A stretch of DNA of 64,000 bases from Candidatus Altiarchaeota archaeon (GTDB lineage Archaea; Altiarchaeota; Altiarchaeia; IMC4; SCGC-AAA252-I15), in NCBI GenBank assembly GCA_041306075.1, contig JBFYKH010000007.1, forward strand, positions 8,821 through 72,820, given 5' to 3'. Under the pieces are notes generated by a model. That model worked only from the letters and a program-made list of their open reading frames with translations, searched no databases and was not told where the DNA came from. Each line of letters begins with the position of its first letter. The stretch's first letter is position 1. The translations under genes and the position numbers were made by a program. This document shows, piece after piece, positions 6,029 through 30,285 of this stretch.

Positions 6029-6355
6029 ATGCATAAGGGCTTATTTACCTTAACCCTAATGGATATTATGGCAAATGCGAGAATCAACTACCTTATAGAC
6101 GCCCTACTTGGGTTGAGTTTCTTCATTACTGCTGCGACAAGCGTAATCATATTCCTTTTCCTGCCTTCAGGGGTCCGCCAGGGAGGCTACCAGGAGTTTA
6201 TGGGCATAACCAAAAGCACATATGGCCTTGTGCACACATACGTCGGCCTATTGATGATAGGCCTCTCGCTCGTACATCTTGTGTTGCACTTTGATTGGAT
6301 AGTGTGCATGACTAAAAACCTTTTCAAGAAAACCGGCGAATGTGCTGTAGAGTAA
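6029..6355 (+). CDS. Small polytopic membrane protein (DUF4405-like?)
   Basis: 108 aa, 2-3 hydrophobic helices; lies in the low-GC patch downstream of tRNA-Glu. Confidence 0.45.
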   Translation: MHKGLFTLTLMDIMANARINYLIDALLGLSFFITAATSVIIFLFLPSGVRQGGYQEFMGITKSTYGLVHTYVGLLMIGLSLVHLVLHFDWIVCMTKNLFKKTGECAVE

Positions 6356-9885: not shown

Positions 9886-10584
9886 TCAGCCGGATTTAGC
9901 CATGGCTATGTGGGTCTCTACGAGTCTGCGCAGGCCTTCGAGCCTCGCTGCGTCGTTGGCGGCCTGGTCGCCGTATCTCGCCGTGTCTTTGGCCTCTATG
10001 GCCTGTTTGAACCGGTCGTATGCTGGGCTTCCCTCGGCCAAGTCCATGGGCGCTATCCCTTGCCTTCTTAGGTGCGCGTTGGCTATGGAGGCGGCCGTCC
10101 TCTTGTTGCGGTCCTTGAAGGCGTGGCTTCCCAGTATCATGGAGTGCATGAACCGGGCCACGTCCTCTCCGACTCCCCCGGGGCCGGGGTAGTTGAGGAT
10201 GCCCAGGCTCTCCTCCAGGTGGGCCGCCGCCGCCTCCGGCGTTGTTGCCGGGAATTTCCGTATTATGTCGCCCATCATGTCGTCTGTGGGGTCAGCCCTC
10301 AGGTTTGCGGACTCGGTCCTGTACTGCCCCCAGTCTGTCCTGGGAGCAAATTGTGTGCCGCCGGACCTGTAGTGCAGGGCGTTGAGTATCCTGGCGTCGG
10401 CCTCCGTGAACGGCCTAGTCTCTCGGACGAGGTAGGCTTCGTATCCGGCGGGGGTCGTCTGAGATATCGCCTCCAGGTCCCGGCCGCCGCTCAGCCATTT
10501 CCGATGGGCGTCCTCGTTCACCTCCATGGGCCGCTCCAGCCTGTCAGCCGGCGCCTCGTCCGGGGCTCTGCGCTTCTGGGGCAT
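9886..10584 (-). CDS. Fic/Doc family protein with Doc-like motif
   Basis: 232 aa; HAFKDRNKRTAASIAN matches the Fic/Doc core HxFx(D)(G/A)N(G/K)R in its Doc-like NKR variant. Confidence 0.45.
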   Translation of the reverse strand: MPQKRRAPDEAPADRLERPMEVNEDAHRKWLSGGRDLEAISQTTPAGYEAYLVRETRPFTEADARILNALHYRSGGTQFAPRTDWGQYRTESANLRADPTDDMMGDIIRKFPATTPEAAAAHLEESLGILNYPGPGGVGEDVARFMHSMILGSHAFKDRNKRTAASIANAHLRRQGIAPMDLAEGSPAYDRFKQAIEAKDTARYGDQAANDAARLEGLRRLVETHIAMAKSG

Positions 10585-16164: not shown

Positions 16165-16230
16165 GGTATTTAAATGCGCCCCCCATCCTGTTGGCTTATA
16201 AACCCATTTTTCCCAATATATTGGTGGGAT
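16165..16230 (+). promoter_or_regulatory. AT-rich putative promoter region (TATA-like boxes) upstream of the first pilin-like gene
   Basis: TTTAAAT (16169), TTATAAA (16196) and AATATATT (16218) in an otherwise GC-rich context; GGTGA RBS 8 nt before the ATG at 16266. Confidence 0.25.
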
Positions 16231-16265
16231 GGGGCTTTAGCCCTGTCTAATGAGGTGAGAATAAG

Positions 16266-16604
16266 ATGGAAAAGAAGTTGTTTTTTAGTGGATTTGTCCT
16301 GCTATTCTTGGCGGGACTGGTTGCAGCGCAGGCATCAGTTGCTCAGAGCGCTGTAGACGCGATTTGCGCGGTGCTGGAGAACATAACGTTTATGCTGTAT
16401 ATGATTACAGCAGCGGTCGGCATCGTGGTGATTGTGCTGCAGGGTATCAAGTGGGCTGGTTCAGCCGAGGACCCTGGAGCAAGGAAGTCTGCGAAGCAGG
16501 GCATCATCCATGCAGTCATTGGCATGATTATCGTGCTCTTGGCAGTATGGATTGTCGCGCTAGTATTCGGACAGGATGAGTGCGACGTCGCCGCCGTCCT
16601 ATAA
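16266..16604 (+). CDS. VirB2/TrbC-like pilin-sized membrane protein, paralogue 1
   Basis: 112 aa; signal peptide ending ...AAQASVA, then two hydrophobic helices separated by the short loop QGIKWAGSAEDPGARKSAKQGIIHAVIG; same architecture and motif as the 29011 and 29365 products. Confidence 0.6.
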   Translation: MEKKLFFSGFVLLFLAGLVAAQASVAQSAVDAICAVLENITFMLYMITAAVGIVVIVLQGIKWAGSAEDPGARKSAKQGIIHAVIGMIIVLLAVWIVALVFGQDECDVAAVL

Positions 16605-16610
16605 GCGGAT

Positions 16611-16666
16611 AATCTTTTTTGTGCCGGACCCGGTCCGGCACAACCTACTTTTTTCTTATTTTCTCA
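16611..16666 (+). terminator. Hairpin plus oligo-T terminator/attenuator after pilin-like gene 1
   Basis: T6, perfect hairpin GTGCCGGAC-CCG-GTCCGGCAC (16621-16641), then CTTTTTTCTTATTTTCTC. Confidence 0.5.
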
Positions 16667-16706
16667 ACAAAACGGCTTTTTTTCCTCATTTTACCATTAA
16701 CTTTTG

Positions 16707-19700
16707 ATGCTTGGGAGCCGTCTGTGCCATAGGCTGGCGACCGTCGTAGTAGTGTCCATACTACTCTCATACGCTGCCTCCTATGTTCTCGCAGGCAAGC
16801 CGGGGGAGCGCGGGCAGGAGGGCGCCGGCTGGTGGGACCAAGTCGGCTCCTGCGTCAAGCGCGAATCCACCTGGACGTATTTTATCCCCATTTACGGGCA
16901 GATTAAGGCATTTGGCACCCTGTTCTGTATCGGGAAGGTCACCGTAATATCGGTCGTCGTGAAGGGTTTATGGGCGATACTGAAGGACCTCATAATCGAA
17001 GGCTTCACCAAGCTATTGATACTGTTCCTGGGGTTCCTCGAGTCGGGGCTCACAGCGACCCCTGACTGGGACAGCGATGCCTACAACAATCTCTACGGCA
17101 TCGTGCTTACGATTATCACGCCGCTCCTCTTCGTGCAGATAATCGTTGTCGCAGGGTACCTGATGTTCTCGTCCATAGACCCCGGCCAGCGTTCCCGGGC
17201 GAAGACGATGCTCACCCGGCTCCTGATGTCGCTCGTCCTGGTCGGGATAGCCAAACCGGCCTACATACTGCTGTTTGACCTCATCAGCGGCCCAAACAGC
17301 ATAACCTCGGCAATATTCGACGCGACATATAACATAATCACGGGCGGGCCGCCCGGGGCTGGGGCGATAACCGCGATGGTCGCGATTTTCGCAGGCATAA
17401 TCGTGTTCGCCGTTTTCAGCGGCGTGGGCCTCACCCTCCTCGGGTGGGTGGTGGCGTATCTCCTCATAGTGGTGTTCATAGTGTACATCCGCTACTCCAT
17501 GATAGTCATGCTCTACATCATATTCCCCTTCACCATATTCCTCTACTACTTCGAGTACACCCGGAGCGTGGGCGGGGACTTCCTCATGAAGACGCTCATG
17601 TGGCTCATAATGGGCCCGGTGATGGCGCTTGTGGTCTCCGTGACTGTCATCTCGCTCGTCGTCTTCCTCGGGGGCGGCGACATGGGGGTGGCCCAAAACA
17701 TAGCGACGAGCCTCGAGGACGTGAAGGAAGACGGCGTGGTGGACGAGGGGGCGATAACCGCCATCGAAGGCCAGGTCAATCTCCCGGCCGGCAGTCTCCC
17801 TGCCGGCCAGGCCGAGCCGCCGTTCACCGAAGCCCTCCTGGCCAAGGTCATAGCATTGTTCATATTCCTCGGCGGCGTAGTGGCGTTGGTCGCCGTGCCG
17901 CTCGTCATGTCCTCGCTCATGCACTGGGTGGGCGGCGCAATGGCCGCGTCCGGGATGATGGGCATCTCGGCAGGCGGCCCCCTGGCGGAGCGTTGGAAGC
18001 AGCTCAGCCTCGTCACGGCCGGCGAGCTGATGATGGGGCGCGGGTCCCAGAGCCTCGTGTCCGCAGCCACGAACATATCCTACATGAACCGTGACGCGGT
18101 CATCGACGGGCAGGGGATGCTGCCCGGCCTCTTCGGCAGCGCGAAGACCGAGGCTTCCATGGCGTCGAAGGGTTCAGCCAGCAGGGGATTCATGGGCAAT
18201 CTTGCGGCCGCATTCAGCGACCACTCGTCGCCGGCCACTAAGGACTTCTATGACCGCTCAAGAGGCGCGGTTTACGGGACTCCCATGTCCGGCGGCCATC
18301 AGGGCGTGGAGTCCGGGATGTCGCAGCGGCCCCCCTTATCCGCCGGGAACAGGCCTCAGGACGGGTCATACGCCGCCGCAGGCGACGGCCGGGGTATGAG
18401 GGTGAATCCGGAGTACCTGAAGGACGACGGCCCCCCAGGTTCGCGTTCCCAGGGCGCTGGCATGCTGAATGCGCCGGCGTCTGAGCTGATTGGCGCGGAC
18501 GGGAAGCCGATGCCTACGTCGACCACCCATTACGACCAGCGTGCCGGGCAGGCCATGGTCACCTCAAGTGAGTCGCAATGGGGAGTGCTGCCGGCATTCA
18601 GGGTGATGGAGCGGATTGACAGCGTTTTCAAGGGCATGGGCGAGGTCAGGAAGGGCGTCTCCGCGGTGTTCAGGCAGAAGGGCAGGCGCCTTGAAGGCGT
18701 GAAGCTCGCCGGCCGCGGCGCCGGGAAGATTCTGGTTTCCGCCGTCCCCATCAGCCCGTTCATGCCTGTGAGGATGATGGGGCGGGTCATCTACACGCTC
18801 ACGCCCGTCCAGCTTCCTCCCGCATTGCAGCCCTACGGCTTCGCCATCGGCGGCGCGATGAAGGGCATCGGCTTAAGGCAGGTCTTCATGCGCACCAAGT
18901 GGGCTGAGCAGATGGGCGTCTACAGGAAAGCATACAAGAACCGGGTGGAGGACCTTGACAAGCTGGATGAAACCCATAAAACCGAGGTCGGGAAGCGGAA
19001 GGCGGGCGTAGACTACTCAAAGGAGGATGAGACGTACCGGCAGAAGCGCGGCAAGGTTCTCTCCGAGATGGGCCGGCTGGAGGACGGGGTGGTCAAGACC
19101 ATGGACCGGATGGGTTTCGGGAAGACTCCGTTCGCCGACGTGCTGCCCGAGAACCCCGACTACGTCTCCTACCTCAAGCATCTTGAGTTTCTGAAGAAGC
19201 AGCGCGACCAGACAGCGGAATCGAACCCGGCGGTTGCCGAACACAGCCTATACGACGCATACCTCCGGAAGTCCAGGGTCACCGAGAAGGACCACCTGAT
19301 GCAGCCGGCCTCGACGCTCTGGGAGAAGCACGAGAAGGGCGAGCTCAAGGGGAAGGATAAGGAGGAGTACGATAAGCTCGCGAAGTCTGCGCAGGCGTTA
19401 TCTGCGGTCCAGTTCGCCGACAACTCCAAGGACAAGTCGGGAGCGGCCGGAAGGCAGGAGAAGGCGCGTTTCATGGCCGCGGGCCTCATGAAGGCGATGG
19501 GCGTGGAGGATTCCATGGAGCAGCGGAGGTTCCTTGAAGCCCACACAGGCCTTCTGGAATTCGACAGGAATGGCGCGCTCACTAGGCAGAGGTATGTGCG
19601 CCTCGACGGCGCCATGGCGCAGGGCGCTCACAACAGGGAGTTCATATACCAGGAGACTTACGACAACAAGGGCGAGCCGCTCGTGAAGGCCGAGTCGGTG

Positions 19701-22019
19701 AACCTCCCCCTCCACAGGGACTCCGACGGCAACGTCTACGCGAGCCCGTATGACATGAAGTACCTGACCTCGTCGATGCGGCATGACGACTGGGCGAGGA
19801 ACAAGGCGCTGGCCAGCGGTTTTGCACTGAAGAACCCGATGCGGTTCACATTCAACTACTCCGACCAGACCGGCCGGTACGTCTCCGGCCAAGGCCAGGC
19901 GGATGCCGTGGCTGAGGTGGCATACGACCCGAAGGAGGGGGTTCTCCTCGGCCCTGACGGCGAACATGCCACCTTGGTCGGGCAGGGGGTGCAGACCCAC
20001 ATGGGCGACCGCGTACTCTTCGTCAGGACCAGCGAGTGGGCCGGGAAAATATATGCTCCCGAGGGGCGGGAGGCGACAGCCGAAGAGTCTAAGGCGGTGG
20101 CTGAAAAAATAAAGGCCGGGGAGAGAGTCGAAGGGTTCGTCGTCCAGGACTGGCTTGACAAGACGAAGTTCGTAGCCCCTACCGAGATGCGTCAGGGAGC
20201 TGACGGCGGAGTTCAATTCGGGTATAAGATATGGAGGCACTACGGCTACAACACCATCCCCACGGCCGACAAGAAGGGGCGCCCGGACATGTCGGCCCCG
20301 ACCCTCATAGGCCGCGACGGCATGGTGTCCGCCCTGAAGGGGATGCCGACCCACGAGGAGCTTAACGGGCCCATGACCCGGGAGATGAGGGGGAAGATGG
20401 AGGAAATCCTGCTCATCAACGGACGGAAACTGGACTACGGCACCCTCACCGACGATGCACTGCGGGAGGAGATGCGGAAGCTCAAGGACTCCAAGAACAA
20501 GGAGTTCGAGAAAGACTTAGACAAGGGGGCTGAGGGCCACAGGATGAAGGCCGGGGCTGAGGCGGCAAGTCGCCTCTCTGGCGCCGGCGTAGCCGGAATC
20601 AGCGCAGAGCAGGCGGCCGGCGTCGACGGCATGTTCGAAATTCACAAGGAGTACATAGCGGCTGCCAAGAACATAACCCTGGCTGGAACCAGATGGGGGT
20701 CATCGACGGGCCTGACCGATAGTGGGATACAGGCAATCAAGGCGTCAGTCCAGAAGACCGCGGCCGAGCACGGGGTCAGGGTTGCGAGCGTAAGCTTCTA
20801 CGACAGCGGCGACACGGCAAGCGACCCGAACCCTATGCTGGTCAGGTTCGAAGACGGGGCCCACCTTCAGGTGAATCTGGCATACATCGCGAATAAGGCC
20901 CGGGCGAGGATAGGCGTCCACGTCGCAGGGAGGGACAGGTCGATAGAGGCCATCAAAGCCGACAGGGCAAAGGCTATAGCGGCCATCGAAGGCGACAAAT
21001 CCAAGCCAAAAGCGGACCGGAAGAAAGCGATAGAGGCGGTTAACGACAAGAAAAAAGAGGAACTAGCGGCCGTAGATCGCGCATTCCACCAGGCAGTCTT
21101 CAAGGACATCGGCGACGGCCTTATACAAAAAGACCTGGATGAAGGGCTGGCTGATTTCCTGAAGCGGGCTGACGGCCACCTCAACCTCCACGAGCTGGCC
21201 GGCCACAACGCGGCGGAGAAGCATGTCGACGCGGTCATGAAGGCGACGAAGGAGAATTATGGCGCGGGGGGCAGGGGCTGGGCCCACAGATTGCTCATGT
21301 TCCGGATGACGAAGCGCAACATGACATTGGCCTCGAAGGAGGTCATAGCGGACGGCATAGTCCCCGACAAGATGACGATGCCGGACGGCACAGAAAAGGA
21401 TAATCCCTCGTTGATAAGGCTCTACGTCGGGGAAAAACAGGACGGCAGCGACGGCCTCATCGGCGAAATACGGAAGTACAAGCGCCTCGGCAGGCCGCAC
21501 CTGATAAACTTCGCGAGGGCTTCAGCCATCGCCAAATTCAGGGGCCTGAAGACGGATAATGGAGCCGATGTCTCCGCCATGTTCGACGAGGCATTGAAGG
21601 GGCAGAACTCGGAAGGAAAGGACCGGCTCACGAGCGGCCAGGCGAAAACATACGAGAAACTGAAGGCGTACTTCGCGGAGCAGGCCGGCCACGTTAAACG
21701 GGAACGCGACGCAATCTACAAAAAGACCGCCGAGGCGGGGAAGGCCAGGCAGGCGAAAATGAGCGGGGCCCAAAGCGGGCCGCAACAACAGAAGGCCCAG
21801 GACGGCCCGGTTGCGGGTGACCTCTCCCCGGAGAAGCGGCCTCAGGCGGAGGCGGGCAAGCGCGGCCAGATACCCCATCACGAGCCTCCTCACGACCACG
21901 ACGCCCCGGGAGCTGGCGGCGGGCACCATGGCGAGGGCCCTGCATCCGGCCCTGACGGGCAAGGGCCTGGAGACGGCGGAGACGGCGGCGGAGACGGCGG
22001 AGGAGACGGTGGAGACTGA
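16707..22019 (+). CDS. Giant membrane protein: N-terminal VirB6/TrbL-like polytopic domain (about 430 aa) plus about 1300-aa charged hydrophilic tail ending in a [DGG]n repeat
   Basis: 1771 aa (ATG at 16707; the track starts at TTG 16704); 8+ TM helices in the first 430 aa; long K/E/D/R-rich region; C-terminus ...HHEPPHDHDAPGAGGGHHGEGPASGPDGQGPGDGGDGGGDGGGDGGD. Confidence 0.55.
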   Translation: MLGSRLCHRLATVVVVSILLSYAASYVLAGKPGERGQEGAGWWDQVGSCVKRESTWTYFIPIYGQIKAFGTLFCIGKVTVISVVVKGLWAILKDLIIEGFTKLLILFLGFLESGLTATPDWDSDAYNNLYGIVLTIITPLLFVQIIVVAGYLMFSSIDPGQRSRAKTMLTRLLMSLVLVGIAKPAYILLFDLISGPNSITSAIFDATYNIITGGPPGAGAITAMVAIFAGIIVFAVFSGVGLTLLGWVVAYLLIVVFIVYIRYSMIVMLYIIFPFTIFLYYFEYTRSVGGDFLMKTLMWLIMGPVMALVVSVTVISLVVFLGGGDMGVAQNIATSLEDVKEDGVVDEGAITAIEGQVNLPAGSLPAGQAEPPFTEALLAKVIALFIFLGGVVALVAVPLVMSSLMHWVGGAMAASGMMGISAGGPLAERWKQLSLVTAGELMMGRGSQSLVSAATNISYMNRDAVIDGQGMLPGLFGSAKTEASMASKGSASRGFMGNLAAAFSDHSSPATKDFYDRSRGAVYGTPMSGGHQGVESGMSQRPPLSAGNRPQDGSYAAAGDGRGMRVNPEYLKDDGPPGSRSQGAGMLNAPASELIGADGKPMPTSTTHYDQRAGQAMVTSSESQWGVLPAFRVMERIDSVFKGMGEVRKGVSAVFRQKGRRLEGVKLAGRGAGKILVSAVPISPFMPVRMMGRVIYTLTPVQLPPALQPYGFAIGGAMKGIGLRQVFMRTKWAEQMGVYRKAYKNRVEDLDKLDETHKTEVGKRKAGVDYSKEDETYRQKRGKVLSEMGRLEDGVVKTMDRMGFGKTPFADVLPENPDYVSYLKHLEFLKKQRDQTAESNPAVAEHSLYDAYLRKSRVTEKDHLMQPASTLWEKHEKGELKGKDKEEYDKLAKSAQALSAVQFADNSKDKSGAAGRQEKARFMAAGLMKAMGVEDSMEQRRFLEAHTGLLEFDRNGALTRQRYVRLDGAMAQGAHNREFIYQETYDNKGEPLVKAESVNLPLHRDSDGNVYASPYDMKYLTSSMRHDDWARNKALASGFALKNPMRFTFNYSDQTGRYVSGQGQADAVAEVAYDPKEGVLLGPDGEHATLVGQGVQTHMGDRVLFVRTSEWAGKIYAPEGREATAEESKAVAEKIKAGERVEGFVVQDWLDKTKFVAPTEMRQGADGGVQFGYKIWRHYGYNTIPTADKKGRPDMSAPTLIGRDGMVSALKGMPTHEELNGPMTREMRGKMEEILLINGRKLDYGTLTDDALREEMRKLKDSKNKEFEKDLDKGAEGHRMKAGAEAASRLSGAGVAGISAEQAAGVDGMFEIHKEYIAAAKNITLAGTRWGSSTGLTDSGIQAIKASVQKTAAEHGVRVASVSFYDSGDTASDPNPMLVRFEDGAHLQVNLAYIANKARARIGVHVAGRDRSIEAIKADRAKAIAAIEGDKSKPKADRKKAIEAVNDKKKEELAAVDRAFHQAVFKDIGDGLIQKDLDEGLADFLKRADGHLNLHELAGHNAAEKHVDAVMKATKENYGAGGRGWAHRLLMFRMTKRNMTLASKEVIADGIVPDKMTMPDGTEKDNPSLIRLYVGEKQDGSDGLIGEIRKYKRLGRPHLINFARASAIAKFRGLKTDNGADVSAMFDEALKGQNSEGKDRLTSGQAKTYEKLKAYFAEQAGHVKRERDAIYKKTAEAGKARQAKMSGAQSGPQQQKAQDGPVAGDLSPEKRPQAEAGKRGQIPHHEPPHDHDAPGAGGGHHGEGPASGPDGQGPGDGGDGGGDGGGDGGD

Positions 22020-22058: not shown

Positions 22059-22562
22059 ATGGCTGAATACACCGACCTGGACCTGGAAGTGATAAAGAAC
22101 ATGAAGGAGGAGTGCATCCAAGAGGTGAAGGCAAACGCAGTGGACGACCTGTACTACTTCATCGTAGAACACAAGCACGGGAAGGGCGCGAGGGACCCGA
22201 TGATTCCGGTCGACTGGGACCTGGTGTTCAAGGAGAACCAGTGCCCCGAATGCAAGGATATAATCAGCCTCAGGGAGTTGACCTACGTCTGCGACAAGTG
22301 CGGCCTCAAGATACCCGTCAGGATGTACGATCTGGCATCGGAGGAATACTCCTCCTGGGTGAAGATACACGACGATGGCGTATCCCTGGCGGAGCGGATG
22401 CGGAAGGCCGGTTACTCCGATGAGCGCACGACCGCACTGTACGAGGATGCTGAGAGGCAGGCTTTCAGGGAGATAGAGTCCTTGAAAACGGAGGATGCGG
22501 GCAAATCCCGGAGGGGCGCCAGGATAGGGCCTTCATCCCGGGGGAGGGGCGGTGAAAGCTAA
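22059..22562 (+). CDS. Cytoplasmic zinc-ribbon protein (operon member)
   Basis: 167 aa; CPECK...CDKCG; GGAGGA RBS; overlaps the next gene by 11 nt. Confidence 0.5.
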   Translation: MAEYTDLDLEVIKNMKEECIQEVKANAVDDLYYFIVEHKHGKGARDPMIPVDWDLVFKENQCPECKDIISLRELTYVCDKCGLKIPVRMYDLASEEYSSWVKIHDDGVSLAERMRKAGYSDERTTALYEDAERQAFREIESLKTEDAGKSRRGARIGPSSRGRGGES

Positions 22563-24582
22563 GGCATTTGTCGCGCTCGTCCTGGTTTCGGCGCTAGCAT
22601 TCGCACTGGTCTCGGCGCAGAGCGACCGGGCAAGGCAGGGCACGTCCTGGATGAAAGAGCTCCTCCGCTCGCCCATGGAGATAATGGCGAAAACGTACAT
22701 CGAGCACACGCTGGGCTCCGTGGTCCAGGCATTGACCAACAACCCCACATTCTACTGCATTCCGGGGGACCCCACCTGCGCCGTCACCCCTGCGGGCATA
22801 GACCTGCTCATGAACAAGTGGATACACCTCCTCGTGCCTTTCTACATCGTCGCGATGCTGTTCACGGCCCTCTTCTTCCTCCTGAAGGCCGGCACGCCCC
22901 GCGGGCGGGCCAGGGCCAGGAGCATGGCGGTGAAACTCATATTCGGCATGGCCCTCGTCGCCCTCTCCCCCGTCATATACCAGACCCTCCTTGAGACCTC
23001 CGTGGTGCTGGTGAATTTCTTCCTCACGGGATACGCCACCGAACTGAACCTTGGGCTCATGACGGTACCCATCGACGCGCAGATATTCCCCCCGCTCGGG
23101 CAGGATGAGATAAACAACATGACGTGGGCGCTCGACAACACGGGCCTCACGATGTCGTGGATATTCATGTACGTCGCCTGCGGCACCCTCATACTCGGCA
23201 ACATCGTGCTCTGGTTCAGGAACATGATGGTCTATTTCTACGGCGTCTTCTTCCCGGTGATAATGTTCCTGTACACGTTCGAGGTGACCAAGCCCCAGGG
23301 CGAGAAATGGATAAACGGCTCCCTCAAGTGGATATTCGCCCCGGTTCTGCAGGCCATGCTCCTGGCGTTCACGGTGCAGGTAGCCAACAACATAAGCATG
23401 TGGAACTTCTCGGGGACTGTCGGCTCGATCGTGCTGACGTTCCTGAGCAACTCCCTGACCGGGATGATAATACTCGCAGGCATATCGGGGTTCATCATGG
23501 GGCCTATGATAGTCGGGCAGGCCATGAGCTGGTTCGGGGACGCAGTATCGTCCGTGGGCCTCGGCACAGGCAACCAGTGGATGGTGAGCATCGGCAACCT
23601 CCTTGCGGGCGGAGGCTCCGGATCGGTGCTCCAGGCCGAGGCGGAGTACGCCAGGGCGTCGTCTTACGAGCGCTACCGGACCATGATGACCGACCGCAGC
23701 ACGCCCGGGACCGCGACTCTCCGCCAGCCACAGGGCGCGTCGGGCCAGGCCCCGTCAATCGGCTCCCCGGGCCAACACTACGCCGCAAGCGGCGACAGCG
23801 CGCCGTCCGGCGGCCAATCCGCAGCCGGCCGCGGCGGCATGTTCGAGTCCTCAACACCTACGGCACAGCTCAGAAGCGCTTTGTCGTACGCCCCGGCCAG
23901 TGATGCTGGCGCCGGACAGTCGACGGGGGCGCCCGGCAACGAGTCTGCTGGCAGCCAACAGGACACATACTCCGGGACCCTGAGCGGCACCCAGACCGGC
24001 TCCCAGCCGCGCCAGCATCAGTCCTACTCGGGCAGCCCGTCCTCAGAGGATAGAGCAGCTAGTGGCTTCAGCCCGGAGGAGCTGAAGGGGGAGCTTGACC
24101 AGAGTTCAGCCAATGACGGCGGCACCCGCTCGGGAGCCGACGCAGCCGGGGATTCATATGCGGCATCCTCGTTCGGGGCGCTGATAAACGACGAGCTTAA
24201 GAAGGAAAAAACGTCCGAGACGATGAGGGCCCTGGCCACAGGAAAGCCCGGTATCAGCGTGCCCCGGGGGGAGGAAGTGGAGGTGCGCACGGGCTCGGCA
24301 GGGGGCATACCGTCAATCAGGACGCCGAGGACGCCGACAGCAGGCTCAAGGGGCATGGGCGCGCAGCCTACGGAGGATGAGGAGATGGCCAGGCTCGCAG
24401 GCATAGCGGCCGACAAGGAGCGGGAGCTGACCGGCCGGCAAATCGAACAGAAGCAGAAGATGGAGGGGATGCAGGCCGACCAGGTGCAGAGGGACGCCGG
24501 CAGAAGGCAGGCGGAAACGGACGGCAAAGCCGCTGAGAAGAAGGAGGCTGCGAAGCGCAGGAACGTGGACCGCGAGCGATGA
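22552..24582 (+). CDS. VirB6/TrbL-like polytopic membrane protein with long disordered S/G/T/Q-rich and K/E-rich C-terminal tail
   Basis: 676 aa; GTG start after GGAGG; signal peptide MKAKAFVALVLVSALAFALVSAQS, extracytoplasmic segment, 6-7 TM helices, low-complexity tail. Confidence 0.55.
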   Translation: MKAKAFVALVLVSALAFALVSAQSDRARQGTSWMKELLRSPMEIMAKTYIEHTLGSVVQALTNNPTFYCIPGDPTCAVTPAGIDLLMNKWIHLLVPFYIVAMLFTALFFLLKAGTPRGRARARSMAVKLIFGMALVALSPVIYQTLLETSVVLVNFFLTGYATELNLGLMTVPIDAQIFPPLGQDEINNMTWALDNTGLTMSWIFMYVACGTLILGNIVLWFRNMMVYFYGVFFPVIMFLYTFEVTKPQGEKWINGSLKWIFAPVLQAMLLAFTVQVANNISMWNFSGTVGSIVLTFLSNSLTGMIILAGISGFIMGPMIVGQAMSWFGDAVSSVGLGTGNQWMVSIGNLLAGGGSGSVLQAEAEYARASSYERYRTMMTDRSTPGTATLRQPQGASGQAPSIGSPGQHYAASGDSAPSGGQSAAGRGGMFESSTPTAQLRSALSYAPASDAGAGQSTGAPGNESAGSQQDTYSGTLSGTQTGSQPRQHQSYSGSPSSEDRAASGFSPEELKGELDQSSANDGGTRSGADAAGDSYAASSFGALINDELKKEKTSETMRALATGKPGISVPRGEEVEVRTGSAGGIPSIRTPRTPTAGSRGMGAQPTEDEEMARLAGIAADKERELTGRQIEQKQKMEGMQADQVQRDAGRRQAETDGKAAEKKEAAKRRNVDRER

Positions 24583-25583
24583 AAGACGACAAGGGCGGGC
24601 GCAGGCTCCAAGAGGAGATAGAGAAGACCGACCAGGAGCTGAGGAAGCTCGACGATAAGGCGGAGGAGCGGGAGGGGAGGAAGCTCGCCGTCGAGGAGGA
24701 CCTGCAGACCAAGTCCAGGATACTCAAGCGGAAGCTGATGGAACCCGCCCAGGCATCGGGCGCGGCTCCCGGGAAGAAGTCCGAGGAAAAGCCCCTCAGG
24801 GCCGAATCCCCGGAGACCCTGCTCAAGGAAGCCGTCCTGCGCCACCAGAACTCCCGGCTGGAAGAAAGGCGCGGAAGACGCGCCCAAATGACGACCGACG
24901 CCAGGGCTAGGATGCGCATAACGTTGGGGGTGGAGTCCGCCATCAACGAATCCATGGAACGCGACCTCCGCGGCCTGGAGGAAACGTCCGACGGCCGTCT
25001 GAAGCGTATACGGGAGCTGAGCGCCAGACGCGCGGGCGGTGGCGGTTCAGCCCAGGAATCGGCCGAGCTGAGGCGCCTGGAGGACAATGAGGCCGACAGA
25101 TACTACCTCAGGGAGCGTCTCCTCAGCCGCATCCGCCTAGAAGAGCTCGGGGAATACGGCTGGGTGAGGCCGATAGGGGACGGGATGCTCGGCATCAAGC
25201 CGTACACCGTCCTGACGCAGTACGACCGGCTGAGCCCGTCGAACAAGCGGGGCGTGAGGTGGCAGTCGGACTCCCTGATGATGCGATTCCAGAACGCAAT
25301 CGTCGGCCACTATGCGCCGAAGAAGGCTTCGTTCTCCTGGCTTCACGAGAAGACCCTCAAGGGCTTCGAGACCCAGTTCGACGACATAAACGAGGAGATA
25401 TACTCCGACAAGAAGTGGGCGGAGACGGTGCGCAAGGGACAGGCGCGGCTGGAGGACATGGAGGAGGAGCTTAGGGGATACGACAATTTCACCGTCGAGG
25501 AGGAGCGGAAGATAAAGAAGCTCTTCAGCGACTACATGAAGAAGCAGGTGGAATTGGGCAAGGAGATAGAATACAATCCCTGA
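24579..25583 (+). CDS. Charged coiled-coil protein (operon member; VirB8/VirB10-like role unknown)
   Basis: 334 aa; start overlaps the upstream stop (ATGA); highly charged E/R/K-rich helical sequence. Confidence 0.45.
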   Translation: MKDDKGGRRLQEEIEKTDQELRKLDDKAEEREGRKLAVEEDLQTKSRILKRKLMEPAQASGAAPGKKSEEKPLRAESPETLLKEAVLRHQNSRLEERRGRRAQMTTDARARMRITLGVESAINESMERDLRGLEETSDGRLKRIRELSARRAGGGGSAQESAELRRLEDNEADRYYLRERLLSRIRLEELGEYGWVRPIGDGMLGIKPYTVLTQYDRLSPSNKRGVRWQSDSLMMRFQNAIVGHYAPKKASFSWLHEKTLKGFETQFDDINEEIYSDKKWAETVRKGQARLEDMEEELRGYDNFTVEEERKIKKLFSDYMKKQVELGKEIEYNP

Positions 25584-25627: not shown

Positions 25628-26536
25628 ATGCCATACGCCATACCCGCTAACATCAGGTACGAGGAGCGGCTCGTAGGCCCGCTGACTATAAAGCAGTCGC
25701 TCTACCTCGGCGCATGCCTTATGGTCGCATGGTTCATATACCAGTCGCCGGAGCTTCCGCCGCCAACCAACGTGGTGGTCGCGCTCCTAGTGGCGGTGAT
25801 AGGGATAGGTTTCGCATTCTTCAACCTGGACGTCTGGCTGACGAACTACATCACCTTCCTCGGACTCACGAAGAAGAGCTCCTGGATTTCGCCCGCGGCG
25901 AGGAAGCTGATGGGCATCAAGTCCATCCGCACGGCATCCATCTACTTCCAGGACAACAAGGTCGTGGGCGTCGTGAAGGTGAAGCCCATCAACTTCGGCG
26001 TCCTGGCGGAGCAGGACAAGGACACGGTCATCTACGGATTCCTGGAGTTCCTGAACTCCCTGAACTTCCCGGTGCAGATAGTCATGCGCAGCGTGAACCT
26101 GGACCTGGAGGACTATCTCCGCCACCTGAAACGGCGGATAGTGCAGCGCGACGACAAGGTGGCGCTCGCCTACTACGAGCACTTCTCGGAGTACATGAGG
26201 AGCTACATAAAGGTGAACAAGATAAACGACAGGCACTTCTACGTCGTCGTCCCCGGCCAGAAGAAGAGGTCGGAGAAGGAGACGATAGACTACCTCGACA
26301 CCCAGTGCAACGAGATAATGGGCCGGCTGTCGCTGTCCGGGATAGTCTCGGAGCGGATGAACGACCGGCAGCTCCTGAACCTGTACAAGTCATATTTCAC
26401 GGACAGCTTCGAGCTCTACGACAGCTACATAAGCCCCATAACCATGTACCGGAAGATGTGGAAGGAGGCGCCGAAGCCTGTCAAGGAGATGAGGGGGGGC
26501 CGGGGGGATGAGCCCCAGGGGGCGGGTGAAGTCTAA
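25628..26536 (+). CDS. Membrane-anchored protein: VirB3-like 2-TM N-terminus plus a domain resembling the N-terminal domain of VirB4/TrbE ATPases
   Basis: 302 aa; two TM helices at residues about 25-75; ...SIYFQDNKVVGVVKVKPINFGVLAEQDKDTVIYGFLEFLNSLNFPVQIVMRS... as in the VirB4 N-domain; 3' end overlaps the next ORF in a G7 tract. Confidence 0.5.
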   Translation: MPYAIPANIRYEERLVGPLTIKQSLYLGACLMVAWFIYQSPELPPPTNVVVALLVAVIGIGFAFFNLDVWLTNYITFLGLTKKSSWISPAARKLMGIKSIRTASIYFQDNKVVGVVKVKPINFGVLAEQDKDTVIYGFLEFLNSLNFPVQIVMRSVNLDLEDYLRHLKRRIVQRDDKVALAYYEHFSEYMRSYIKVNKINDRHFYVVVPGQKKRSEKETIDYLDTQCNEIMGRLSLSGIVSERMNDRQLLNLYKSYFTDSFELYDSYISPITMYRKMWKEAPKPVKEMRGGRGDEPQGAGEV

Positions 26537-28811
26537 GATGGCATTCGGGTTCGGAGGGTCGAAGGCGAAGGAGAAGACCGAGGCAGAGTCGTATACGGAG
26601 TATGAGGACCGTCTCATAGAATACCTGACCTCGCCGTCCACCATCAACATCAAGCCGTCGGTGATAGAGATAAACAAGCTCCATCAGGTGATATGCGCCA
26701 TCAACTATCCGCGTCTCGTGGACCCGGGCTGGCTGACCCGGCTCATAGAGATGAACCTGGACTTCGACCTTGCCATACACATCAGCCCCTACAAGATAGA
26801 CACCACCATCAAGCTCCTCGAGGCGGAGATAAAAAAGCAGAAGACGGACCTGTATGCCCTCGAGACGGAGGGCAAGATAGTCCCGCAGGCCCTGATACAG
26901 CAGCACCAGGACACGATGGCGCTCCTGCAGCTCGTCCAGGAAGGCACGGAGAAGATGTTCGACATGTCGCTCTACCTAGATGCCAAGGCATTCAACAAGG
27001 AGGACATGGAGCGGATAAGCAAGCAGATAAGGGACACCATGAACAGCATCATGATAATCCCGAAGATACCCTCGTACCAGATGTACAAGGCCCTTCGGAG
27101 CGTCCTGCCGCTCGGCGTCGACGAGCTGCAGGTGACGAGGAACATCACAAGCTCAGCCGCGGCCGCCTGCTTCCCGTTCGCCATCACTTCGCTTGAGCAG
27201 CACGCGACCGGCATCCTAATAGGGTTCAACGAATACAACAGCATCCCCATCATAATCGACCCGTTCCAGCTGTCCAACCCCAACATACTGGTGCTCGGCA
27301 CCTCGGGCGGCGGGAAGAGCTACTCGATAAAGCTGATACTCATGAGGGAGTTCATGGAGGGCGTCTCCATCAACATCATCGACCCGCAGGCGGAGTACAC
27401 GGACCTTGTGAGGACCTTCAACGGCGAGATAATCAGGATAGCCCCGGACTCGGACAGCGTCATCAACCCGTTCGACCTGATGGACCAGACGTTCGACGAG
27501 AAGAAGCTATCCCTCCTCGCATTCTTCAGGTGCCTCCTCGGGGAGCTCACGGAGCCGCAGAGGGCGATACTAGACGAGACCATAGACCGCACATACGAGG
27601 AGAAGGGCATAAACAAGGACTCCAAGACCTGGAGCCGCCAGCCGCCCCTCCTCGAGGACCTGTACAACGAGGTGCTCCCGCTCACGAAGTCCCAGAAGGA
27701 GATAATCTACGGCCCCGCGATGGCCATCGTGAACCGCCTCAAGAGCTACGTCTTCGGGCCGATGAGGTTCCTGAACCAGCACACGAGGATAAACATCTCC
27801 AACCGGATGATAAGCTTCGACATCAAGGACTCGCCCGACATCGGCAAGGGCACCATCATGTTCCTGCTCCTCGAGTACGTGTACACCCAGATGAAGAAGT
27901 CGAAGACCAGGAAGATACTCGTCATCGACGAGGCCTGGACGGTCCTTTCGGCAGGCGAGCAGGCCGAGTACGTGCTCCGTCTCGTCAAGACGTGCAGGAA
28001 GTTCAACCTGGCGCTCATCATGATAACCCAGGACGTGGAGGACGTCCTCGTCTCCCGGGCCGGCAGGGCGGTTCTGACGAACACGGCCACGAAGATACTC
28101 CTCAAGCAGGACACCTCCATACTTGACCAGATAGTAGAGCGCTTCAACCTCAACCAGGCGGAGCGGCGATTCCTCCAGATTTCCACGATGGGCCGCGCCC
28201 TCCTGATAGCCGAGACCACGAGAGTCCCCATATACGTGCAGGCGTCCCCGGAGGAGCATAGGATAATAACGACCCGTCCCGACGAGCTCATAAACCGCCG
28301 GGAGGTGAAGCGTCCGGAGGGGGAGGACCTGGTTAAGGAGTTCGACATAAACAAGGTCGTCCAGCGGAAGGAGGACCTGGACGACGACCAGATACAGGCG
28401 CTCGGGCAGAGGGACTTCGGAGAGGTGCGCGTCAAGAACCTGAGCGGCGAGTCGGAGCTGTACCTGATAAAGAACGAGACCGAGGACACGGACGAGCACT
28501 TCGTCATGCAGCAGCTGATATTCAACGAGGTCAGGAGGTACACAGACAAGGTCCTGATACACCACACCCGGCTGCCCGACATCACGTTCGAGACCCGCAC
28601 CGGCAAGATGGTCGCAATCGAGATCGAGGCGGACGTGGGCCTCAAGAAGGGCATAGACAACATGCAGGACAAGCTCCCGCTGATGCAGAAGTACGACGAC
28701 TACTTCTACGTGGTCTCCAACCCGGCGCTTAAGAGGGACTACGGCAGCAAGTTCGGGGACATGCTGGCGCGGGAGGAGGTCCAGCAGAGGATTGCGACCT
28801 ATTTCGTGTGA
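26508..28811 (+). CDS. VirB4/TrbE/TraC-family (CedB-like) secretion ATPase with extra C-terminal domain of about 190 aa
   Basis: 767 aa; Walker A ILVLGTSGGGKSYSI, Walker B KILVIDEAWTV, ...LALIMITQ...; C-terminal extension ...PDITFETRTGKMVAIEIEADVGLKKG... Confidence 0.8.
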   Translation: MSPRGRVKSKMAFGFGGSKAKEKTEAESYTEYEDRLIEYLTSPSTINIKPSVIEINKLHQVICAINYPRLVDPGWLTRLIEMNLDFDLAIHISPYKIDTTIKLLEAEIKKQKTDLYALETEGKIVPQALIQQHQDTMALLQLVQEGTEKMFDMSLYLDAKAFNKEDMERISKQIRDTMNSIMIIPKIPSYQMYKALRSVLPLGVDELQVTRNITSSAAAACFPFAITSLEQHATGILIGFNEYNSIPIIIDPFQLSNPNILVLGTSGGGKSYSIKLILMREFMEGVSINIIDPQAEYTDLVRTFNGEIIRIAPDSDSVINPFDLMDQTFDEKKLSLLAFFRCLLGELTEPQRAILDETIDRTYEEKGINKDSKTWSRQPPLLEDLYNEVLPLTKSQKEIIYGPAMAIVNRLKSYVFGPMRFLNQHTRINISNRMISFDIKDSPDIGKGTIMFLLLEYVYTQMKKSKTRKILVIDEAWTVLSAGEQAEYVLRLVKTCRKFNLALIMITQDVEDVLVSRAGRAVLTNTATKILLKQDTSILDQIVERFNLNQAERRFLQISTMGRALLIAETTRVPIYVQASPEEHRIITTRPDELINRREVKRPEGEDLVKEFDINKVVQRKEDLDDDQIQALGQRDFGEVRVKNLSGESELYLIKNETEDTDEHFVMQQLIFNEVRRYTDKVLIHHTRLPDITFETRTGKMVAIEIEADVGLKKGIDNMQDKLPLMQKYDDYFYVVSNPALKRDYGSKFGDMLAREEVQQRIATYFV

Positions 28812-28851: not shown

Positions 28852-29007
28852 ATGGTGCCAATCACCAGGGACAACCGCTTGTGCACGCACCGTGTCGGCA
28901 ACAAATGCGGAAACCAGAAGGTCGGAAACGCCCCTGTCGTGAACGACAGCCTCCAGTCCAGGTGGTACTGCAGCAACTGTCCCTACTACTTCAAGGCGTC
29001 AGGCTGA
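28852..29007 (+). CDS. Small Cys-rich (zinc-finger-like) protein, 51 aa
   Basis: Below the track cutoff: MVPITRDNRLCTHRVGNKCGNQKVGNAPVVNDSLQSRWYCSNCPYYFKASG*; fills the gap between the ATPase and the pilin genes. Confidence 0.35.
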   Translation: MVPITRDNRLCTHRVGNKCGNQKVGNAPVVNDSLQSRWYCSNCPYYFKASG

Positions 29008-29010
29008 AAC

Positions 29011-29328
29011 ATGGCCCCCATAAGCGTCATGCTTGCGCGCCATGCAGCAGCCTTCATGCTGGCGTTCGCCCTGGCGGGGTTCGCCCAGGCCCAGTGCTAC
29101 GAGCCCTTGGGCTCCGACCTGATGAAACCCGTAAAGAATATCATAGACTTCCTGGTGGTGATAGCCTACCCCATCGGATTCTTCATGATAGTCTACATGG
29201 GGGTAAAATGGATAATCTCCGAGGGCCCCGAAGACCGGGAGAACGCCAGGCGCGGGGTCATCTACGTGATAATAGGCCTGATACTCCTCAGGTCCGCGTT
29301 CTATCTGGTCACATACCTCCTGTGCTAG
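29011..29328 (+). CDS. VirB2/TrbC-like pilin-sized membrane protein, paralogue 2
   Basis: 105 aa; signal peptide ...AGFAQAQ; motif MGVKWIISEGPEDRENARRGVIYVIIGLILL between two hydrophobic helices. Confidence 0.6.
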   Translation: MAPISVMLARHAAAFMLAFALAGFAQAQCYEPLGSDLMKPVKNIIDFLVVIAYPIGFFMIVYMGVKWIISEGPEDRENARRGVIYVIIGLILLRSAFYLVTYLLC

Positions 29329-29364: not shown

Positions 29365-29688
29365 ATGGCATCGCCAAGGTTAATCCTAGCGGCCGTCCTG
29401 ATAGTCTCTCTCCTGTCGATGGCGGCTTCCGCTCAGACCCCTCTCAGCTGGGTCGTCGGCCTGAAGAGGGTGGCGTTCGCGCTCGGGTGGATAATGATGG
29501 TCTTCATGGGCGTTAAATGGATTGTCGCGGACAGCGCCAATGAGAGGGCGGAGGCGAAGAAGGGGATGATATACATCGTCATCGGCCTCCTGATCGTGGC
29601 GAGCGTTTCAAGCCTGCTCCAGATGTACTGCGACGTGGTCGCCTCGTCCGGGGTGGCGGGCTTCACCTGCACGGCGGGGTCCTACTAG
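29365..29688 (+). CDS. VirB2/TrbC-like pilin-sized membrane protein, paralogue 3
   Basis: 107 aa; signal peptide ...SMAASAQT; motif MGVKWIVADSANERAEAKKGMIYIVIGLLIV; C-terminal Cys pair. Confidence 0.6.
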   Translation: MASPRLILAAVLIVSLLSMAASAQTPLSWVVGLKRVAFALGWIMMVFMGVKWIVADSANERAEAKKGMIYIVIGLLIVASVSSLLQMYCDVVASSGVAGFTCTAGSY

Positions 29689-29730
29689 GGGCTCGTGCGG
29701 CCCAAGCCGCAGTCAGCCTTCTTTCTCCCA
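29689..29730. terminator. Putative bidirectional hairpin terminator between convergent genes
   Basis: TGCGGC-CCAA-GCCGCA hairpin (29696-29711) followed by a T-rich run, exactly between the stops of the pilin-3 and PLD genes. Confidence 0.3.
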
Positions 29731-30285
29731 CAGGTTCCTGAAATATGCCTCAAAGTACCTGGCAGTCTCCTCATCGCTTATGAGCACGTCGACTTCATTG
29801 TTCCTCTCGAGGCCGAAGTAGCTGAAGTTGGTGCTTCCTAGGAGGACCTTTTTGCCGTCGACTATGATTAGCTTCGCGTGCGTCGTCGTCTCGTTGGAGT
29901 CCATCCTGACTTCTACGCCCCCCGCCCTCAGGACCTCGAAGGCGTTGTTCTCCTTAGAGTACTCGTCAGCCACCACCCTCACGTCCACGCCCCTCTCCTT
30001 GGCGTACACGAGATCCCTCACGAGCCTGTTCTGGCGGCTCCCGGGATTCGTCTCGTAGTACTTCATCTCGAATGCCACGATGTGCACGCTCTTCTTAGCC
30101 TCCGTTATCGCCTTATGCGCCTCCTCATAGTATCCGCGGTCGGATATGGGCACCACGACCGGCTCGCCTTCCCGTGAAGGGGAGCCGCAGGCGTAGCCTA
30201 TGCCGGCGTCGCGGACCAGGGCCCCCAGGACGACTCCGACGAAGACCCCCGCCAACAAGCCCCACAGTAACGGCCGCCCCATCAC
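29713..30285 (-). CDS. Phospholipase D-family (HKD) endonuclease, Nuc-like, membrane-anchored
   Basis: 190 aa; N-terminal TM; HKD motif THAKLIIVDGKKVLLGSTNFS. Confidence 0.7.
   Translation of the reverse strand: MMGRPLLWGLLAGVFVGVVLGALVRDAGIGYACGSPSREGEPVVVPISDRGYYEEAHKAITEAKKSVHIVAFEMKYYETNPGSRQNRLVRDLVYAKERGVDVRVVADEYSKENNAFEVLRAGGVEVRMDSNETTTHAKLIIVDGKKVLLGSTNFSYFGLERNNEVDVLISDEETARYFEAYFRNLWEKEG

Follow-up and report, generated by a model that had tools for sequence, protein, structure and literature searches.

Three small membrane proteins encoded in a 64-kb stretch of contig JBFYKH010000007.1, from a Candidatus Altiarchaeota archaeon, belong to the VirB2/TrbC family of conjugative pilins, and the genes that separate the first of them from the other two encode further parts resembling a type IV secretion system (T4SS). 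We refer to the whole stretch of 64,000 nucleotides as the window and to the three genes as pil1, pil2 and pil3. The window encodes archaeal markers, including aEF-2, EF-1alpha, both PolD subunits and a threonyl-tRNA synthetase (ThrRS) with the archaea-specific editing domain. The most probable explanation of the three proteins is that they are pilins of a chromosomally fixed, vertically inherited T4SS-like apparatus in this Altiarchaeota-type archaeon; we assign a probability of about 0.72 to this explanation as a whole, including its inferred steps.

An earlier reading of the same DNA, made without database searches (the sequence-only reading), had proposed these three open reading frames (ORFs) as paralogous pilin candidates bracketing an operon. 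The positions that it gave and the three peptides that it quoted were exact, all three ORFs lying on the plus strand, and the claim of paralogy was borne out against all 819 stop-to-stop ORFs of at least 40 amino acids (aa) in the window: BLASTP linked pil1 with pil2 (E 1.4e-9), pil2 with pil3 (E 3.8e-13) and pil1 with pil3 (E 6.5e-5). When the pilin family profile was run on the window ORFs, only these three were recovered (E 9e-41 to 2e-30), the next-best match being the neighbouring 1771-aa protein (E 0.15). Another ORF (6029-6355), with a BLAST E of 0.003 to pil1, was rejected as an unrelated protein with two transmembrane (TM) segments whose similarity is confined to the hydrophobic parts. 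The three pilins align over their full length and share invariant G60, K62, W63, R73, A76, G79 and G86 (pil1 numbering). According to hydropathy, each consists of a hydrophobic N-terminal leader and two TM-length helices with a charged loop between them, and each leader ends in an AXA site 23-27 residues in (Table 1). The common layout had been recognized correctly in the sequence-only reading; the loop motif written there does not fit pil1, which has GIIH instead of GIIY and a loop one residue longer.

Two curated Pfam families recognize these proteins. All three exceed the cut-off of T4SS_pilin (PF18895; 34.1, 47.0 and 34.7 bits for pil1, pil2 and pil3, respectively, against 26.6), and pil1 and pil2 also exceed that of TrbC/VirB2 (PF04956; 29.3 and 35.8 bits against 27.9), pil3 staying under it with 16.8 bits. 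In NCBIfam, sub-threshold matches to a Mycoplasma pilin-like family of integrative and conjugative elements (ICEs) were the only relevant ones, and some relatives are named 'pilin' or 'TrbC/VirB2 family protein' by NCBI. Judged by sequence, pil1, pil2 and pil3 are ordinary members of the known TrbC/VirB2-T4SS_pilin superfamily. Hence the label 'VirB2/CedA1-like', under which they were first described, holds for its VirB2/TrbC half, given the Pfam cut-offs passed and the VirB3-, VirB4- and VirB6-like gene context. The CedA1 half is an analogy only: among the NCBIfam models, none named for Ced reached E<=0.1 with a pilin (the presence of a CedA1 model in the library being unconfirmed), and the ATPase of the cluster is far from CedB. 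Homology to archaeal type IV (class III) pilins, named in the sequence-only reading as a result that would refute it, found no support: at E<=0.1 the proteins matched no such Pfam or NCBIfam family, the three leaders show no K/R-G/A prepilin motif, and there are two hydrophobic helices, not one. A PHROGs search of the cluster proteins gave nothing useful, and Rfam gave nothing within the cluster.

Structure prediction points to the same simple architecture. With an alignment of 88 homologs, AlphaFold2 modelled the pil1 precursor as a helical hairpin (helices 3-65 and 70-102; predicted local distance difference test (pLDDT) score 86.6) and mature pil1 as helices 2-42 and 47-78 joined by a four-residue turn (pLDDT 90.3). 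For comparison at the sequence level we used Agrobacterium tumefaciens VirB2, whose sequence was confirmed in PDB entries 8cue, 8fai and 8exh. With hhalign, the family profile and VirB2 (8cue) keep the same register from the leader-peptidase site, across GI(K/S)W and as far as helix 2, but the match is weak (E 0.002, probability 13.6%). Fold searches with such a generic TM hairpin were non-discriminating, and the best structural matches included the ATP synthase c subunit and PomA.

Conserved cysteines are a further feature of the family. Among the pil1 orthologs, 59 of 61 sequences have one Cys 29 residues before the invariant Trp and another 42-44 residues after it. The pil2 orthologs carry a Cys after the predicted cleavage site, that is, at the mature N-terminus, and in 9 of 11 a Cys is also the last residue; most members of the pil3 group have an even number of Cys in the tail. 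In the model of mature pil1, Cys11 is level with the end of helix 2, and Cys83 lies five residues past that end. The conserved pairs and this model suggest a disulfide staple between the N- and C-terminal regions of pil1 and pil2, which would mimic the head-to-tail cyclization of the T-pilin and TrbC.

The distribution of relatives indicates a stable chromosomal system. Pilin-profile relatives formed 94 clusters that fell cleanly into three ortholog groups (61 pil1, 11 pil2 and 22 pil3), which implies that the triplication is old; the 61 pil1 orthologs are 54-85% identical. All seven GTDB species representatives with pil1 are Altiarchaeota or unnamed archaea, and all but one of the taxon-labelled metagenome-assembled genomes (MAGs) with the cluster are Altiarchaeota or Altiarchaeales. 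Similarly, the VirB4 ATPase has about 100 homolog clusters at 59-98% identity, nearly all of the taxon-labelled ones being Altiarchaeota/Altiarchaeales. The next tier (42-46% identity) consists of fused TraC-like-VirB4 proteins and a homolog from Diapherotrites (DPANN), whose locus has the order pilin, 490 aa, TrbL_3-like, PrgI/TraC-like and VirB4. The gene order pil1, giant protein, ~170 aa, ~700 aa, ~400 aa, TraC-like, VirB4, 51 aa, pil2 and pil3 recurs in related loci (L001-L004, L007 and L008) and in JGI contigs, and all related loci that we examined have pilin genes together with VirB3 and VirB4. The flanks also recur: PMT_2-type glycosyltransferases and a spermine-synthase-like gene upstream, and the PLD gene, D-Tyr-tRNA deacylase (DTD), ThrRS and RpiA downstream. 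Since related MAGs share the cluster together with several of its housekeeping flanks and the three groups of pilin orthologs, we consider it a vertically inherited chromosomal system and not a mobile element. In addition, no relatives were found in viral contigs of IMG/VR, no att-like direct repeats bracketing the cluster were found and the composition showed no clear break. About 6 kb upstream, a 232-aa ORF (9886-10584, minus strand) has a sub-threshold match to the Doc toxin family (E 0.003); the ORFs near it, between 6.4 and 12.6 kb, had no family matches.

The three pilins do not appear to be equivalent, and pil1 looks like the major one, judged by its strong Shine-Dalgarno site, near-invariant loop and recurrent downstream hairpin with T-tract. 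First, the GAGGTGA upstream of pil1 is kept in seven of eight loci, and neither pil2 nor pil3 has a comparable site. Second, the loop LQGIKWAGSAEDPGARKQAKQGIIHAVIGL is nearly invariant across 57 pil1 orthologs. Finally, the hairpin plus T-tract that had been noticed after the first pilin gene is real: its 11-bp stem, followed by a T6 run, has a folding free energy of -19.2 kcal/mol (z -3.6; 0 of 200 shuffles as stable) and was the top terminator-like site of the scan, the total for the region not being above shuffles (12 versus 10.4). A GC-rich hairpin and T-tract just 3' of the pil1 stop were found in six of eight loci (the window, L004, L005, L006, L007 and L008); of the remaining two, L009 has T-tracts only, and in L010 both a T-tract and a comparable hairpin are missing. 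As stem sequences are unrelated between loci, the structure is kept without the sequence. This recurrence with differing stems lends comparative support to the earlier idea of a major subunit followed by an attenuator; the arrangement fits high pilin output with partial read-through, or a stabilized 3' end of the pilin message. Upstream of pil1, several related loci have a conserved gene of 92-98 aa directly before it (L001:9579-9857, L002:9596-9892 and equivalents in L006, L008 and L009), which is ribbon-helix-helix-like by eye and has no Pfam match. In the promoter region of pil1, related loci further have the palindrome TGTATACA-N-TGTATACA; the window has neither this palindrome nor the 92-98-aa gene and shows the 12-nt palindrome of Table 1 instead.

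A division into major and minor pilins, suggested in the sequence-only reading, is likewise supported at the sequence level by three old, separately kept ortholog groups and by the occurrence of pil2/pil3-type domains at the end of larger Cys-rich proteins. The latter were observed in a more distant genome, on an Altiarchaeota-like contig of 1.56 Mb which once more has a pil1 ortholog ahead of the ATPase genes: three proteins of 211-381 aa (L011:12910-16266, minus strand), adjoining a 124-aa pilin, have Cys-rich N-terminal ectodomains and a C-terminal T4SS_pilin domain of the pil2/pil3 type that is above the Pfam cut-off. Such proteins are what we would expect of tip or adaptor subunits.

The features of the locus are listed in Table 1. 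In agreement with the description of an operon bracketed by pilin genes, the VirB3-, VirB4- and VirB6-like genes lie between pil1 and pil2, where genes are tightly packed and partly overlapping over an operon of ~13 kb. The complete set comprises three pilins, two VirB6-like paralogues, a split VirB3-VirB4N plus VirB4 ATPase, and three small or other proteins.

Table 1 Features of the pilin locus, by position in the window
Feature	Coordinates	Strand	Description
Second TATA-like element TATTTAAAT	16167-16175		Read from sequence
TATA-like element CTTATAAAC	16195-16203	+	Putative pil1 promoter, read from sequence
Perfect 12-nt palindrome CCAATATATTGG	16213-16224	+	Between TATA-like box and Shine-Dalgarno site; candidate operator
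Shine-Dalgarno GAGGTGA	16252-16258	+	7 nt before pil1 ATG
pil1	16266-16604	+	112 aa; VirB2/TrbC-family pilin, proposed major subunit; predicted cleavage AQA↓S after residue 23; Cys34, Cys106
Terminator/attenuator-like element	16619-16664	+	11-bp GC-rich stem-loop 16619-16643; T6 16649-16654; further T runs to ~16664
Giant membrane protein	16704-22019	+	1771 aa; likely start ATG 16707; N-terminal ~440 aa multi-TM, VirB6-like; ~1300-aa hydrophilic extension
167-aa protein	22059-22562	+	Weak zinc-ribbon signature (Zn-ribbon families E 0.006-0.03, below cut-offs)
676-aa multi-TM protein	22552-24582	+	VirB6/TrbL-like paralogue of the giant protein's N-terminal domain
334-aa protein	24579-25583	+	Soluble, charged; no family match; start overlaps preceding stop (ATGA)
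VirB3-like (PrgI) + VirB4 N-terminal domain	25628-26536	+	302 aa; PF12666 PrgI 29.8 bits against 27; NCBIfam VirB4_plasma positions 74-277
VirB4-family ATPase	26508-28811	+	767 aa; PF19044 91.5 bits; AAA_10, DUF87
Four-cysteine mini-protein	28852-29007	+	51 aa; C11, C19, C40, C43; between VirB4 and pil2; stop 3 nt before pil2 ATG
pil2	29011-29328	+	105 aa; VirB2/TrbC-family pilin, proposed minor subunit; predicted cleavage AQA↓QC; Cys29, Cys105 (last residue)
pil3	29365-29688	+	107 aa; VirB2-family pilin, proposed minor subunit; predicted cleavage ASA↓Q; two Cys in C-terminal tail
PLD-family protein	29713-30285	-	Membrane-anchored, single-HKD, Nuc/NucT type; PF13091 86 bits; convergent with pil3

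The ATPase has its best curated match in the NCBIfam model conju_CD1110, of the monoderm/FATA type (292 bits, just below the cut-off of 325), and reaches only 55.9 bits with CedB (cut-off 700). Its closest plasmid homologs, CD1110-type VirB4s of Actinobacteria and Firmicutes, are 26-31% identical. VirB4 is split here, the 302-aa and 767-aa ORFs overlapping by 29 nt, and this split is kept in all Altiarchaeota loci and one Diapherotrites locus; the more distant relatives at 42-46% identity are single proteins of 1071-1110 aa. The 167-aa gene keeps its position in all related clusters, and in related loci the slot of the 334-aa gene is filled by one of comparable size (~350-450 aa) that lacks a Pfam match. 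The 51-aa ORF is 74% identical to L003:9522-9674 and has a 51-aa counterpart in the same slot of three other contigs; it probably represents a genuine zinc-finger mini-protein that belongs to the system. The PLD-family protein resembles the endonuclease Nuc of plasmid pKM101 (PDB 1byr, E 7e-10) and Helicobacter pylori NucT. Its gene adjoins the cluster in the window, in L003 and in two other contigs, though not in all related genomes; it is a possible candidate for a DNA-processing accessory, and a nuclease gene of this type beside the cluster may be a weak hint at DNA. No coupling protein (VirD4/PcfC), relaxase, integrase, VirB1-type hydrolase or VirB8-like PrgL was found among the cluster genes with Pfam, NCBIfam and PHROGs, divergent versions being possible among the three proteins without assignment.

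Two of the operon genes appear to provide a membrane platform. The N-terminal TM domains of the 1771-aa protein (16704-18083, plus strand) and the 676-aa protein (22552-23640, plus strand) are paralogous (hhalign 99.6%, E 1.9e-23). Two of four 676-aa orthologs match PF04610 TrbL/VirB6 at E 0.0015, below threshold, and the 676-aa family aligns with the TrbL_3-annotated protein of the Diapherotrites cluster (hhalign 90%, E 1.7e-6); a word-index homolog search with the 676-aa protein gave a single match. Both proteins hold a pilin-like hairpin with a (D/T)P(G/R)xRxxA(K/R) loop, which in the giant protein is embedded at residues ~127-191 (SSIDPGQRSRAK). The pilin profile matched the alignment of giant-protein orthologs with E 1.9e-4 over 64 columns, and three of seven giant-protein orthologs match T4SS_pilin below threshold. 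This recalls the relation of CedA to CedA1 and of VirB6 to VirB2 noted by Beltran et al. (PMC9905601); a pilin-like hairpin in the VirB6-like protein has been reported for CedA versus CedA1. At its C-terminus the giant protein also has a short GGD/GDG tandem repeat (21969-22010; DNA repeat of the GGAGACGGCGG type). Among 1.84 billion representatives, the strongest matches to the pilin profile were proteins made of tandem pilin units: P0216 (L014:10001-15328) and P0217-P0235. In P0216, a protein of 1775 aa, the layout Cys, helix, SDDPxxRxxAK and helix is repeated in 17 units; its gene is a stand-alone chromosomal one that, within the 18.6 kb covered, does not belong to a T4SS cluster. One cluster of such tandem proteins includes a protein of Candidatus (Ca.) Altiarchaeales.

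On the basis of these results, we propose the following mechanism. Sec would export the pilins and signal peptidase I would remove their leaders at the AXA site, leaving helical hairpins in the membrane whose charged loop faces the cytoplasm and whose two termini are outside. The VirB4 ATPase, placed on a platform of VirB3- and VirB6-like proteins, would extract them and polymerize them into a tube of the conjugative type. As the major subunit, pil1 would be made in excess thanks to a strong ribosome-binding site of its own, and the hairpin and T-tract would end or stabilize most pil1 transcripts, some others reading through into the assembly genes; pil2 and pil3 would be low-copy specialized subunits that act in initiation, at the tip or as adaptors. 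The apparatus may serve cell-to-cell DNA transfer as in the Ced and Ted systems, which is the weakest step of the explanation. By analogy, DNA transfer between cells would be the most likely role, with a conduit for contact or exchange as its main rival and the cargo being only what we infer. Ca. Altiarchaeum has been reported to have a double membrane (PMC4975002), and for this reason one could speculate that the long VirB6 extension matters for envelope spanning. Taken together, these ideas would describe a phylum-wide domesticated T4SS of Altiarchaeota, separate in sequence from Ced/Ted, in which a tube of VirB2 pilins, each pseudo-cyclized by an N-to-C disulfide in place of a peptide bond, crosses the envelope for exchange of chromosomal DNA, a giant VirB6 spans the periplasm and as many as 17 copies of the pilin module also stand in tandem within single 'poly-pilin' proteins. 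We offer this combined picture tentatively, as one that is possible and still rather doubtful in its entirety.

It should be noted that several points weigh against the proposed explanation. First, hidden Markov model (HMM) searches of PDB sequences with profiles of 3 and 88 pilin sequences did not reach VirB2, TraA, CedA1 or TedC; they gave a weak match to the Pf3 coat protein (E 0.014). Second, the VirB6/TrbL-like nature suggested for the TM domains of the 1771-aa and 676-aa proteins is based on sub-threshold Pfam matches and hhalign, and the signal-peptide cleavage sites were predicted by eye. Third, hairpins are not required for archaeal termination, and the pil1 element may therefore act on RNA stability. 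Finally, none of the cluster genes identifies the cargo, and the system is known here from its genes.

Of the alternatives, the one that survives best is a device for contact-dependent exchange or attachment, like the chromosomal T4SS of Patescibacteria that is essential for epibiotic growth. The pilins would then build a short trans-envelope stalk or channel in place of a long pilus for DNA transfer, and the cargo would be proteins, metabolites or signals passed between biofilm cells or to and from symbionts. Such a device would fit a VirB4 whose best curated match is of the FATA/CD1110 type, the type that is also found in Patescibacteria, where the systems are likewise chromosomal, frequently lack a relaxase and have arrays of 2-11 PF04956/PF18895 pilins (PMC12102498, PMC12857230). 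A related cluster in a DPANN genome, that of Diapherotrites, points in the same direction, and a role in host interaction has been proposed for giant membrane proteins of nanohaloarchaea that are linked to VirB4-like ATPases (PMC10266531). However, the homologues of VirD4, VirB1 and VirB8 that Patescibacterial loci commonly retain (PMC12857230) were not detected here, and Patescibacterial pilin arrays are highly variable, with an average identity of 25% (Quinonero-Coronel et al. 2025, PMC12102498), in contrast with the three stable ortholog groups of the present system. The Nuc/NucT-type gene that is often found beside the cluster also hints at DNA. Altiarchaeota themselves are described by cultivation-independent work as autotrophs and not as obligate epibionts. 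We therefore regard a contact device as unlikely, although it deserves more weight than any other rival.

It is also conceivable that the cluster represents the transfer genes of an integrated conjugative element or of a plasmid remnant, with pilins that serve the spread of that element. T4SS genes usually reside on mobile elements, the nearest curated models of the ATPase are ICE and plasmid families and there is the weak Doc-like match upstream. However, neither an integrase nor a relaxase nor a coupling protein was found among the 10 cluster genes and the scanned flanking ORFs, and the plasmid relatives do not exceed 31% identity. Both housekeeping flanks are shared even with a genome whose pil1 is only 65% identical, and this conservation between divergent genomes, together with the lack of integrase, relaxase and att repeats in the searches made, largely refutes a mobile element, which we hold to be very improbable. 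The remaining idea, that these are unrelated small two-helix membrane proteins (holin-like, c-subunit-like or archaeal type IV pilins) whose T4SS similarity is a compositional artefact, could draw on the generic hairpin fold with its ATP synthase c subunit and PomA matches and on the low hhalign probability for a single VirB2 sequence, but it is refuted for practical purposes, and hardly credible, in view of two independent curated HMMs above threshold, a specific and conserved loop motif, the constant company of VirB3 and VirB4, the names given to relatives by NCBI and the failure of type IV pilin families to match.

With the pilins taken as parts of a fixed T4SS-like apparatus, their significance lies first in taxonomic range. 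Archaeal chromosomal T4SS derivatives that lack a relaxase and have VirB2 pili have been described only from two crenarchaeal groups, Ced and Ted (PMC9905601, PMC12102498), and in a T4SS review of December 2025 the section on archaeal systems is limited to Sulfolobus plasmids and pT33-3 (PMC12857230). Our literature search found no paper that ties Altiarchaeota to VirB4, VirB2, conjugation or this system. If the combined picture outlined above is true, the Altiarchaeota T4SS would be a further archaeal domestication of conjugation machinery. A conserved system with three pilins and two VirB6-like proteins would point to specific genes that may mediate gene exchange or contact between cells in a subsurface lineage that is uncultivated and distributed worldwide, and would link archaeal systems to the T4SS of Patescibacteria. 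It also raises testable structural ideas: that a disulfide staple replaces cyclization, that major and minor pilins have separate tasks and that VirB6 contains a pilin-like hairpin.

Comparison with known systems places the cluster between several of them. Agrobacterium VirB2 (the T-pilin) and TrbC of RP4, both PF04956, share with the pilins a long cleavable leader, two hydrophobic helices, a short basic loop, the GI(S/K)W motif and a gene beside virB3/virB4; the loop here is ~7 residues longer, the host is archaeal, and a TraF-type cyclase is not evident, conserved Cys pairs being present instead. With regard to T4SS of the FATA class of mating-pair formation (MPF), PrgI passes its cut-off and the VirB6-like part is indirect, whereas VirD4/PcfC, relaxase, VirB1 and VirB8-like PrgL were not detected in the cluster. 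In the rvh T4SS of Rickettsiales, the VirB6-like proteins are duplicated and carry very large hydrophilic extensions, and VirB2 is present in several paralogues; this system is bacterial, diderm and effector-secreting, and has a full set of VirB7-11 plus VirD4. The cluster shares with it duplicated, extended VirB6-like proteins and several VirB2 paralogues, and shows no closeness to it in sequence. Extended VirB6 proteins are also mentioned in PMC12857230.

The other two comparisons are those with Ced (Sulfolobales, Aeropyrum) and Ted (Thermoproteales), which import DNA (van Wolferen 2016; PMC9905601), and with the Patescibacteria T4SS. Ced and Ted are likewise archaeal and chromosomally 'domesticated', with a minimal VirB2/VirB6/VirB4 set and no relaxase; this is a functional resemblance and not family membership. 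TedC has a signal peptidase I-type leader like the pilins described here, whereas CedA1 is unprocessed (PMC9905601). A sequence relation to Ced is not detectable with the CedB model or, for the pilins, with the Ced models. Furthermore, unlike Ced/Ted, the cluster has no linked genes for HerA, Rad50 and ParA, includes a VirB3-like part, encodes three classes of pilin and belongs to Altiarchaeota. The Patescibacteria T4SS (PMC12102498; Wang et al. 2023, as far as it is summarized in PMC12857230) shares the ATPase type suggested by the curated models, a PrgI/VirB3-like and a VirB6-like protein, several PF18895/PF04956 pilins near virB4, the chromosomal location and, in most cases, the lack of a relaxase. 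It differs in its bacterial host, in its VirD4, VirB1 and VirB8 homologues and in its variable arrays, against which the present system sets an archaeal host, a split VirB4, three pilins only, in old and stable ortholog groups, and two VirB6-like paralogues, one of which has an extension of ~1300 aa. In its short list of parts (VirB2, VirB3, VirB4, VirB6 and few others) and its fixation in the chromosome the system resembles Ced/Ted, and in its type of ATPase and its several PF18895 pilins it resembles the T4SS of Patescibacteria.

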